Positions 1,924 to 3,243 of a DNA stretch of 4,217 bases are shown in pieces. The stretch comes from Escherichia coli (GTDB taxonomy: Bacteria > Pseudomonadota > Gammaproteobacteria > Enterobacterales > Enterobacteriaceae), in the NCBI RefSeq assembly GCF_003334255.1, contig NZ_QOWU01000109.1. One strand, given 5' to 3'. Every line of letters begins with the position of its first letter. The first letter of the stretch is position 1. A model generated the notes under the pieces. It was given only the letters and a program-made list of their open reading frames with translations, did not search any database and was not told where the DNA came from. The translations under genes were made by a program, and so were the position numbers.

Positions 1924-3243
1924 ATGGATATCTGCTCCCGAAACAAGAAATTAACGATTAGAAGACCAGCGATACTAGTTGCACTGGCACTTTTACTGTG
2001 TAGTTGTAAAAGCACGCCTCCAGAGTCCATGGTGACACCACCAGCAGGTTCAAAGCCACCAGCCACGACGCAACAATCGTCACAACCGATGCGTGGCATC
2101 TGGCTGGCCACGGTTTCTCGGCTCGACTGGCCACCGGTTTCCTCGGTTAACATTAGTAACCCCACCAGCCGGGCCCGTGTACAACAACAGGCGATGATCG
2201 ACAAACTGGATCATCTGCAACGTCTCGGCATAAACACGGTCTTTTTCCAGGTCAAGCCGGACGGTACCGCCCTGTGGCCATCGAAAATTTTGCCGTGGTC
2301 CGATCTTATGACCGGTAAGATTGGTGAAAATCCGGGTTACGATCCGCTGCAATTTATGCTCGACGAAGCCCACAAGCGTGGGATGAAAGTACACGCCTGG
2401 TTTAACCCCTATCGCGTATCGGTTAATACGAAGCCCGGTACTATCAGGGAACTGAATAGCACTCTGTCTCAACAACCGGCGAGCGTCTATGTGCAACACC
2501 GCGACTGGATCAGAACGTCTGGCGATCGCTTTGTCCTCGACCCGGGCATCCCTGAGGTTCAGGACTGGATCACATCAATAGTCGCAGAAGTGGTTTCCCG
2601 CTATCCCGTAGATGGCGTGCAGTTTGACGACTATTTCTATACGGAGTCACCGGGTTCACGGCTAAATGATAACGAAACGTACCGTAAATACGGAGGCGCA
2701 TTTGCGTCAAAAGCAGACTGGCGGCGCAACAATACTCAGCAGTTAATTGCAAAGGTATCGCACACCATTAAAAGCATTAAGCCGGGAGTCGAATTTGGTG
2801 TTAGCCCGGCAGGCGTGTGGCGTAACCGATCACACGATCCGCTCGGTTCCGATACCCGAGGCGCGGCAGCCTATGACGAATCCTACGCTGACACCCGTCG
2901 ATGGGTGGAACAAGGATTGCTGGATTACATTGCTCCCCAAATTTACTGGCCGTTCTCACGGAGTGCCGCGCGTTATGACGTGTTGGCAAAATGGTGGGCG
3001 GATGTCGTTAAACCGACCAGGACCCGCCTGTATATCGGTATCGCCTTCTATAAAGTGGGTGAACCTTCAAAGATAGAGCCAGACTGGATGATTAACGGCG
3101 GCGTACCGGAACTGAAAAAGCAGCTCGATCTTAACGATGCTGTGCCCGAAATTAGCGGCACCATCTTGTTCCGTGAGGACTATCTGAATAAACCGCAGAC
3201 TCAACAAGCGGTCAGCTATCTGCAAAGTCGCTGGGGCAGTTAA
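1924..3243 (+). CDS. digH: Glycosyl-hydrolase-like (GHL10 family) outer-membrane lipoprotein, 439 aa; denuded-glycan hydrolase acting at the division septum
   Basis: The 439-aa ORF has an N-terminal signal peptide (KKLTIRRPAILVALALLLCSC) with Cys residues in lipobox position, then a Pro/Ser/Thr-rich linker (STPPESMVTPPAGSKPPATTQQSSQ) and a globular domain. I recognise the sequence as E. coli YddW (renamed DigH). 1924 is the first in-frame ATG after an upstream in-frame TGA at 1864-1866. The SD is weak (GGAA about 10 nt upstream). Confidence 0.93.
   Translation: MDICSRNKKLTIRRPAILVALALLLCSCKSTPPESMVTPPAGSKPPATTQQSSQPMRGIWLATVSRLDWPPVSSVNISNPTSRARVQQQAMIDKLDHLQRLGINTVFFQVKPDGTALWPSKILPWSDLMTGKIGENPGYDPLQFMLDEAHKRGMKVHAWFNPYRVSVNTKPGTIRELNSTLSQQPASVYVQHRDWIRTSGDRFVLDPGIPEVQDWITSIVAEVVSRYPVDGVQFDDYFYTESPGSRLNDNETYRKYGGAFASKADWRRNNTQQLIAKVSHTIKSIKPGVEFGVSPAGVWRNRSHDPLGSDTRGAAAYDESYADTRRWVEQGLLDYIAPQIYWPFSRSAARYDVLAKWWADVVKPTRTRLYIGIAFYKVGEPSKIEPDWMINGGVPELKKQLDLNDAVPEISGTILFREDYLNKPQTQQAVSYLQSRWGS

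Follow-up and report, generated by a model that had tools for sequence, protein, structure and literature searches.

Genomic Context and Identity of DigH

The window analysed here, i.e., a whole stretch of 4,217 nucleotides of Escherichia coli DNA (contig NZ_QOWU01000109.1 of assembly GCF_003334255.1), covers the gadB (3' end)–gadC–digH–dosC region. The gadC gene lies at positions 258–1793 (TIGR00910 match, 1027 bits), while the digH/yddW open reading frame extends over positions 1924–3243 of the + strand and encodes a protein of 439 amino acids, 100% identical to the E. coli digH/yddW product. In all the RefSeq genomes matched, this interval is labelled digH, “family 10 glycosylhydrolase”, and the same start codon is given to the gene in every E. 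coli record examined. A first-pass annotation, made from the letters of the sequence, had located the signal peptide of DigH at positions 1924–2100, and this attribution proved right, the interval corresponding exactly to codons 1–59 of DigH/YddW. The features discussed below are collected in Table 1.

Table 1. Features of the digH region; positions are those of the window and residues those of DigH.
Feature	Position	Strand	Basis
Predicted gadC terminator hairpin, GGGAGCGAT...ATCGCTCCC, then TTTTT	1818..1851	+	RNA fold and sequence reading
Candidate sigma-70 promoter, TTGACT-16 nt-GAGAAT	1863..1890	+	Pattern match, 9 of 12
Start codon and positively charged n-region M1–R14, net charge +4	1924..1965	+	Translation
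Hydrophobic h-region P15–L25, PAILVALALLL, 11 residues, none charged; L25 is lipobox −3	1966..1998	+	Translation
Lipobox L25-C26-S27-C28; predicted SPase II cut S27/C28	1996..2007	+	Patterns and ortholog conservation
Conserved proximal tether K29–P40; motif S30-x-P32-P33-x-S35-[L/M]36-V37-T38-P39	2008..2043	+	Column entropy
Variable distal tether A41–P55, Pro/Ser/Thr/Gln/Lys-rich, predicted disordered	2044..2088	+	pLDDT, entropy, composition
GHL10 (beta/alpha)8-barrel catalytic domain, opening M56-R57-G58-I59-W60, through stop codon	2089..3243	+	Pfam PF02638, AF2, Cwp19 match

In the literature, DigH is described as a midcell-accumulating hydrolase with specificity for denuded glycans and as one of the enzymes that clear denuded glycan strands, whereupon E. 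coli daughter cells separate; its level goes up upon disruption of NlpI–Prc. The Pfam profile GHL10 (PF02638) matches residues 55–389 with an E-value of 7.5e-136, over profile positions 1–310 of 311, whereas no family was matched in a scan of DigH against NCBIfam, which hence provides no curated lipoprotein model. We built an AlphaFold2 (AF2) model with an alignment of 143 sequences (mean pLDDT 90, pTM 0.86), in which the first strand of the barrel is formed by residues 57–61 and, from residue 57 on, the barrel has pLDDT values above 90. The near-full-length profile match and the modelled (beta/alpha)8 barrel place DigH in the GHL10/DigH glycosyl hydrolase family.

The best match in the PDB is Cwp19 of Clostridioides difficile (5oq2/5oq3), which shares the GHL10 catalytic fold (for 5oq2, phmmer E = 5.5e-100, Foldseek TM 0.94, 42–43% identity). 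The solved Cwp19 chain aligns to residues 43–431 of DigH only and has no counterpart of the signal peptide, the lipobox and the proximal linker. The AF2 model, for its part, gives residues 16–29 of DigH as a helix of low confidence. Cwp19 belongs to the Gram-positive surface proteins and is anchored via cell-wall-binding repeats.

Signal Peptide and Lipobox

The N-terminus of DigH can be divided into MDICSRNKKLTIRR / PAILVALALLL / C26 S27 C28 / KSTPPESMVTPPAGSKPPATTQQSSQP / MRGIW, residues 1–28 being MDICSRNKKLTIRRPAILVALALLLCSC. Cysteines occur at positions 4, 26 and 28 only, of which the mature protein can keep no more than those located after the cut; the last two are encoded by TGT codons (C26 at 1999–2001, C28 at 2005–2007) on either side of AGT (S27, 2002–2004). 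Neither DigH nor its class of protein is new, and its lipoprotein signal is a standard one: residues 1–27 very probably constitute a Sec-type signal peptide for signal peptidase II (SPase II), with L25-C26-S27-C28 as the lipobox and Cys28 as the lipid anchor, the linker following. The usual sequence features of such a signal are found in DigH, i.e., a small residue at −1, a hydrophobic one at −3, a cysteine 15–35 residues into the protein, a charged n-region and an h-region within about 7–22 residues. Both Lgt and LspA require a small residue (Gly, Ala or Ser) at −1, which Cys26 does not have, L25 standing before it.

As the first-pass annotation had stated, neither cysteine fits the strict motif [LVI][ASTVI][GAS]C, since position −2 relative to Cys28 is itself a cysteine. 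Broader definitions are more permissive: the PROSITE-type pattern (PS00013-type), {DERK}(6)-[LIVMFWSTAG](2)-[LIVMFYSTAGCQ]-[AGS]-C, allows Cys at −2, and so does the G+LPPv2 pattern. Searched as regular expressions, each gives a single match in DigH, with Cys28 as the cysteine, and no match at Cys26. The designation of the double-Cys lipobox as non-canonical can thus be retained in part: the lipobox is atypical in having a −2 residue found nowhere else in the 114 predicted lipoproteins of strain K-12 (see below), but the broader patterns fit at Cys28, so that the label is valid only against the narrowest consensus, Cys being an allowed −2 residue in the others.

Conservation of the Lipobox among Orthologs and Strains

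A homolog search over 5.8 billion proteins returned 120 close DigH homologs, whose N-termini align as ...L-L-(V/A)-S-C-(S/A)-S-K-P-P-x-S-L-V-T-P.... Lipobox residues were tallied over 66 distinct ortholog N-termini from Enterobacterales. The cysteine aligned with Cys28 is present in 66/66, preceded at −1 by Ser (60) or Gly (6), and position −3 is occupied by Leu (55), Val (9), Ala (1) or Ile (1), i.e., by Leu or Val in 64 sequences. Position −2, which aligns with Cys26, holds Val (31), Ala (26), Cys, Thr, Ser and Phe (2 each) or Gly (1). Among 73 ortholog rows from outside Escherichia, the C28 column is likewise 100% Cys, with Ser at −1 in 90%. Which of the two cysteines is lipidated, a question that the first-pass annotation had left open, is therefore answered by the alignment, where Cys28 is invariant and preceded by Ser or Gly at −1.

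Cysteine at −2 is limited to two of the clusters behind the 66 N-termini, E. coli/Shigella and E. fergusonii, and all listed members of both that include the N-terminus keep LLCSCKSTPP. Unlike E. coli DigH, orthologs outside Escherichia display an ordinary L-(V/A)-S-C-(S/A)-S. Because of this confinement to the Escherichia clusters, Cys26 reads as a lineage-specific replacement and not as an alternative anchor: in terms of the alignment, it is a tolerated change at −2, a position at which Val, Ala, Ser or Thr is found in the other Enterobacterales. More remotely, this Escherichia-specific cysteine at −2 (CxC) might modulate the rate of maturation or make maturation redox-sensitive.

Within E. 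coli, the 251-nt digH region was found in 5412 of 5426 complete genomes. Across the 5,412 genomes carrying the locus, at least 5105 records match exactly a 40-mer with the lipobox at its centre, and a 28-mer over the lipobox codons is retained in 5187 genomes. Of the four variants sampled, one has TGC in place of TGT at Cys28, two have a synonymous codon (for a Leu and a Pro, respectively) and one has S30N; they all leave LCSC unchanged.

At a larger evolutionary scale, representatives at 50% identity indicate that the broad GHL10 family mostly does not have a lipobox. The distant homologs, largely long multidomain proteins, carry ordinary non-lipoprotein signal peptides in most cases, while a lipid anchor with a tether is found among the Enterobacterales DigH proteins and, in a scattered way, in other homologs. 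As to which cysteine is used, the broad GHL10 set says nothing, and information comes from the close orthologs alone.

Comparison with Predicted Lipoproteins of Strain K-12

Table S1 of Rao et al. 2020 lists 114 predicted K-12 lipoproteins, of which YddW is the sole one with Cys at −2 and also the sole one with Lys at +2. Its entry gives LCSC as the lipobox, KSTP as the retention signal and a tether length of 31, next to which “Cys 26” is printed. The entry is internally inconsistent, LCSC/KSTP meaning Cys28, and the printed residue number was probably taken over from database annotation; the ambiguity raised by the first-pass annotation is thus mirrored in published work. That number nonetheless speaks for a reading in which Cys26 would be lipidated, with L23-L24-L25-C26 as the lipobox, a cut between L25 and C26, and a mature protein starting with C-S-C-K. 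A position-specific log-odds score, derived from the 113 remaining lipoproteins of the table and hence restricted to E. coli, also leaves room for it, with −6.55 bits for Cys26 and −6.08 bits for Cys28. The two scores are nearly tied because either choice puts two residues at positions where they are never seen in the set; for Cys26, these are Leu at −1 and Cys at +3. Being so close to a tie, the score was rejected as a discriminator between the two cysteines, and the ortholog alignment decided.

The individual positions nevertheless bear on the reading with Cys26. In the 113 other lipoboxes, constraint is strongest at position −1 (2.31 bits, versus 1.27 at −2), with Gly in 70, Ala in 33, Ser in seven and three single outliers, and Leu never occurs there. 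Given that −1 is under the tightest constraint and that Lgt and LspA need a small residue at this place, Cys28 is favoured. Moreover, the broader lipobox patterns give no match at Cys26, the lipobox and retention signal printed for YddW are themselves those of Cys28, and a column that is mostly Val or Ala in the orthologs, with few Ser, Thr, Phe or Gly and with Cys in Escherichia only, cannot be the anchor of the family. We thus regard lipidation of Cys26 as extremely unlikely, whereas Cys28 is, on these sequence comparisons, the lipid anchor of DigH with high probability. This assignment is of use for Cys-to-Ala, signal-swap and linker-deletion constructs, as well as for correcting the sources that list Cys26.

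Outer-Membrane Localisation and Maturation

The classical inner-membrane retention signal consists of Asp at +2 only. DigH, with Lys29 at +2 and Ser30 at +3, has no such Asp, and its orthologs have Ser, Ala, Lys, Thr or Val at +2, never Asp. In the proteomic study of Sueki et al. 2020, YddW was detected with 17 peptides and its sucrose-gradient profile assigned it to the outer membrane, in agreement with its STEPdb class (OMLP). It is also among the outer-membrane lipoproteins of validated localisation in El Rayes et al., and further papers regard DigH as a lipoprotein of the outer membrane too. An SPase II/Lol substrate lacking Asp at +2 would be expected to fractionate in this way.

The same data bear on whether DigH is a lipoprotein at all. 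If signal peptidase I (SPase I) cut the precursor instead, e.g., after C28 or S30, DigH would be soluble in the periplasm, with no lipid anchor. The small residues at −3 and −1 make C26-S27-C28/K and C28-K29-S30/T formally possible sites when the sequence is read in this way, and the ordinary signal peptides of most distant GHL10 homologs would be in line with it. However, YddW is recovered from membranes and co-fractionates with the outer membrane, as a soluble periplasmic protein should not; the lipobox is conserved across the whole DigH ortholog group; and the family is named “lipoprotein YddW” by both JGI and UniRef. A cut by SPase I is accordingly very unlikely in our view, and the doubt cast by the first-pass annotation on processing by SPase II is not supported, considering the published outer-membrane proteomics and the conserved lipobox.

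Compared with classical lipoproteins of the Lgt/LspA/Lnt and Lol pathways (Lpp, Pal, MltA, MltB, NlpD), DigH has in common the charge of the n-region, a core of 11 residues, Leu at −3, Ser at −1 and Cys at +1, and it is likewise devoid of Asp at +2 and found in the outer-membrane fraction. What sets it apart is the Cys at −2 together with the Lys at +2, each of them unique in the K-12 set. Maturation with Cys28 as the anchor would proceed as follows. Lgt would put a diacylglycerol on Cys28, after which LspA would cut between Ser27 and Cys28, so that Cys4 and Cys26 would be lost with the signal peptide and mature DigH would be left with a single cysteine; Cys28 would then be N-acylated by Lnt. 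The part of the literature covered here yielded no direct lipidation data on DigH (palmitate or alkyne-fatty-acid labelling, globomycin, N-terminal mass spectrometry), and a 2025 paper on DigH makes no mention of a lipoprotein, a lipobox or a linker. The stake of the anchor site is functional, as it decides from which side of the wall DigH acts.

A Bipartite Linker

Downstream of Cys28, the linker (residues 29–55) is made of Pro, Ser, Thr and Gln for 19 of its 27 residues, i.e., 70% versus 25% for all other residues of DigH (Fisher p = 2.6e-6), with a hydrophobic share of 7%. In the AF2 model, pLDDT falls below 50 at residues 28–30, 33–35 and 38–52, and about 27–28 residues predicted to be unstructured separate Cys28 from the first barrel strand (from residue 57), which corresponds to a contour length of about 84–100 Å (8–10 nm). 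The length of the whole linker shows small variation across DigH orthologs (25–32 residues). With this predicted disorder, the DigH linker belongs to the “long” class as defined by El Rayes et al. (>22 unstructured residues). A linker of more than 22 residues is shared with RcsF, NlpD, Pal and LpoB (El Rayes et al. 2021 preprint), that of DigH being rich in Pro, Ser, Thr and Gln and predicted to be disordered.

Such a length should suffice for a barrel anchored in the outer membrane to reach the peptidoglycan layer. It is plausible that the linker lets DigH reach septal peptidoglycan, as had been proposed from the sequence: by spacing the GHL10 barrel from the membrane, it would give the barrel access to the denuded glycan strands of septal peptidoglycan, on which it would act. 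An alternative or additional role has been published for linkers of this kind, namely efficient Lol trafficking, long linkers being needed for the Lol-dependent targeting of RcsF, NlpD and Pal to the outer membrane (El Rayes et al. 2021 preprint). By analogy with these other long N-terminal linkers of outer-membrane lipoproteins, that of DigH probably aids Lol trafficking as well.

The earlier description of this segment as a low-complexity linker rich in Pro, Thr, Ser and Gln is accurate with respect to composition and predicted disorder, but it applies less well to the pattern of conservation: residues 29–40 are conserved and only residues 41–54 are variable. The mean column entropy amounts to 0.64 bits over residues 29–40, near that of the catalytic domain (0.40 bits) and well under that of residues 41–54 (2.07 bits), and P33, S35, V37 and T38 are invariant in the 73 orthologs from outside Escherichia. 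Viewed through the alignment, the tether of DigH is bipartite, with a conserved motif of 10–12 residues followed by a variable spacer, and this is the only feature that goes beyond existing annotation. It represents a modest, testable lead; the conserved proximal motif and the discrepancy between Cys26 and Cys28 in annotations are the only points to pass on.

A model in which the tether is a passive spacer does not account for the conserved motif at residues 30–39. One possibility, which we hold as tentative, is that S30-x-PP-x-S-[L/M]-VTP is specifically recognised, e.g., by the Lol machinery, in turnover controlled by NlpI–Prc, or by a partner in the divisome or the Tol–Pal system, residues 41–54 alone being the flexible tether. 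The entropy profile and the four invariant positions are consistent with it, and NlpI/Prc does affect DigH levels. We also checked the AF2 model for packing of the proximal segment onto the barrel: residues 31–40 have a pLDDT of about 50 and are not packed onto it, and at a confidence of only about 50 no structural role was assigned to segment 30–39. Since the segment is unpacked in the model, intramolecular folding would not explain its conservation, although a weak intramolecular contact is compatible with a low pLDDT.

Other considerations reduce the appeal of a recognition element. The orthologs are 75–86% identical overall, so that relatedness alone predicts some conservation, and no partner or assay ties segment 30–39 to any function. 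Furthermore, the sequence of the RcsF linker is reported to be unimportant as long as the linker is long and disordered (El Rayes et al.), whereas the proximal 10–12 linker residues of DigH are strongly conserved. The more specific proposal, in which S-x-P-P-x-S-[L/M]-V-T-P would be a motif dedicated to the DigH family and recognised for sorting, NlpI–Prc-dependent turnover or septal recruitment, is a little more doubtful still; if true, the “tether” would combine a spacer with a functional module. A recognition role of residues 30–39 would come on top of the account with Cys28 as the anchor and leave that account in place.

Expression Signals around digH

Upstream of digH, the RNA fold of positions 1796–1860 (−21.3 kcal/mol for the structure) includes a stem of 10 bp, and the hairpin thus predicted downstream of gadC separates digH from the gadBC transcript, as judged from the folded sequence. 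This hairpin was not listed by a simple terminator scan and was revealed by folding. An Rfam scan of the window, digH leader included, returned no known RNA element. The candidate sigma-70 promoter of Table 1 is the sole consensus promoter match in positions 1750–2000, and three diverged E. coli strains carry it without change. A small upstream ORF (1889–1954) was considered as a translational regulator and rejected, its ATG lying inside the candidate −10 hexamer, so that it is probably not on the digH transcript.

Two statements of the first-pass annotation on translation initiation were confirmed. The Shine–Dalgarno (SD) sequence of digH is weak, its duplex with the anti-SD amounting to −3.5 kcal/mol (the corresponding values for gadC and dosC, also in the window, being −9.3 and −6.0), and no ATG, GTG or TTG other than the annotated start lies in frame from the upstream stop (1864) down to Cys28. 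The first-pass annotation had taken these as signs of low, tightly limited expression; published work indicates control of DigH by NlpI–Prc after translation, which thus sets the level of the protein at least in part.

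Lipobox variants and mature N-termini of DigH orthologs

Two DigH orthologs among the 120 close homologs, P0040 and P0115, carry Asn rather than Ser or Gly at position -1, immediately before the lipobox cysteine (LLTNC and LLSNC), which makes their lipobox more unusual than that of E. coli DigH. Beyond the cysteine, the mature ortholog consensus reads C-(S/A)-S-K-P-P, while the mature sequences of both MltA and MltB start with C-S-S-K-P (Rao et al. 2020, Table S1, PMC7139219), so that three outer-membrane-anchored enzymes cleaving glycan strands have the same first residues after the lipid-modified cysteine. 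This likeness may nonetheless be due to chance, since Ser is common at positions +2 and +3.

Features flanking digH

Secondary features of the window
Feature	Position	Sequence	Remark
Candidate -10 hexamer	1885-1890	GAGAAT	
21-codon ORF	1889-1954	MSAHLFTGNQHIWISAPETRN	frame other than that of digH; digH start codon within overlap
Perfect hairpin, 14 bp	3261-3295	AACAAGCCGGTG...CACCGGCTTGTT	shortly 3' of digH stop
Terminal sequence	4141-4217	GGTAATGACTCCAACTTATTGATAG...	IS1 terminus

The ATG of the small ORF that overlaps the digH start lies inside the candidate -10 hexamer and, therefore, this ORF may be absent from the digH mRNA. Pairing of the ORF with the anti-SD is calculated at -5.7 kcal/mol. 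At the other end of digH, the hairpin is part of a structure at -23.9 kcal/mol and is devoid of a T-run. Ahead of the dosC promoter region, it might act as a terminator, either weak or factor-dependent.

Ends of the window

The IS1 terminus closing the window breaks dosC after codon 178. The same junction is found in strain VL40, where a truncated dosC pseudogene, an IS1A transposase and a sodC fragment are annotated in succession, an order that implies a deletion or rearrangement mediated by IS1; in the K-12-derived TOP10, dosC is intact. At the gadB end, the TOP10 match (locus L009) begins at base 19 of the window, bases 1-18 lying outside of it. Upstream of gadC, TOP10 has yrhD/yrhB/ggt and a small pseudogene fragment instead of gadB, hence it is TOP10 that is rearranged at this end of the locus; the source strain of the window has the normal gadB-gadC arrangement.
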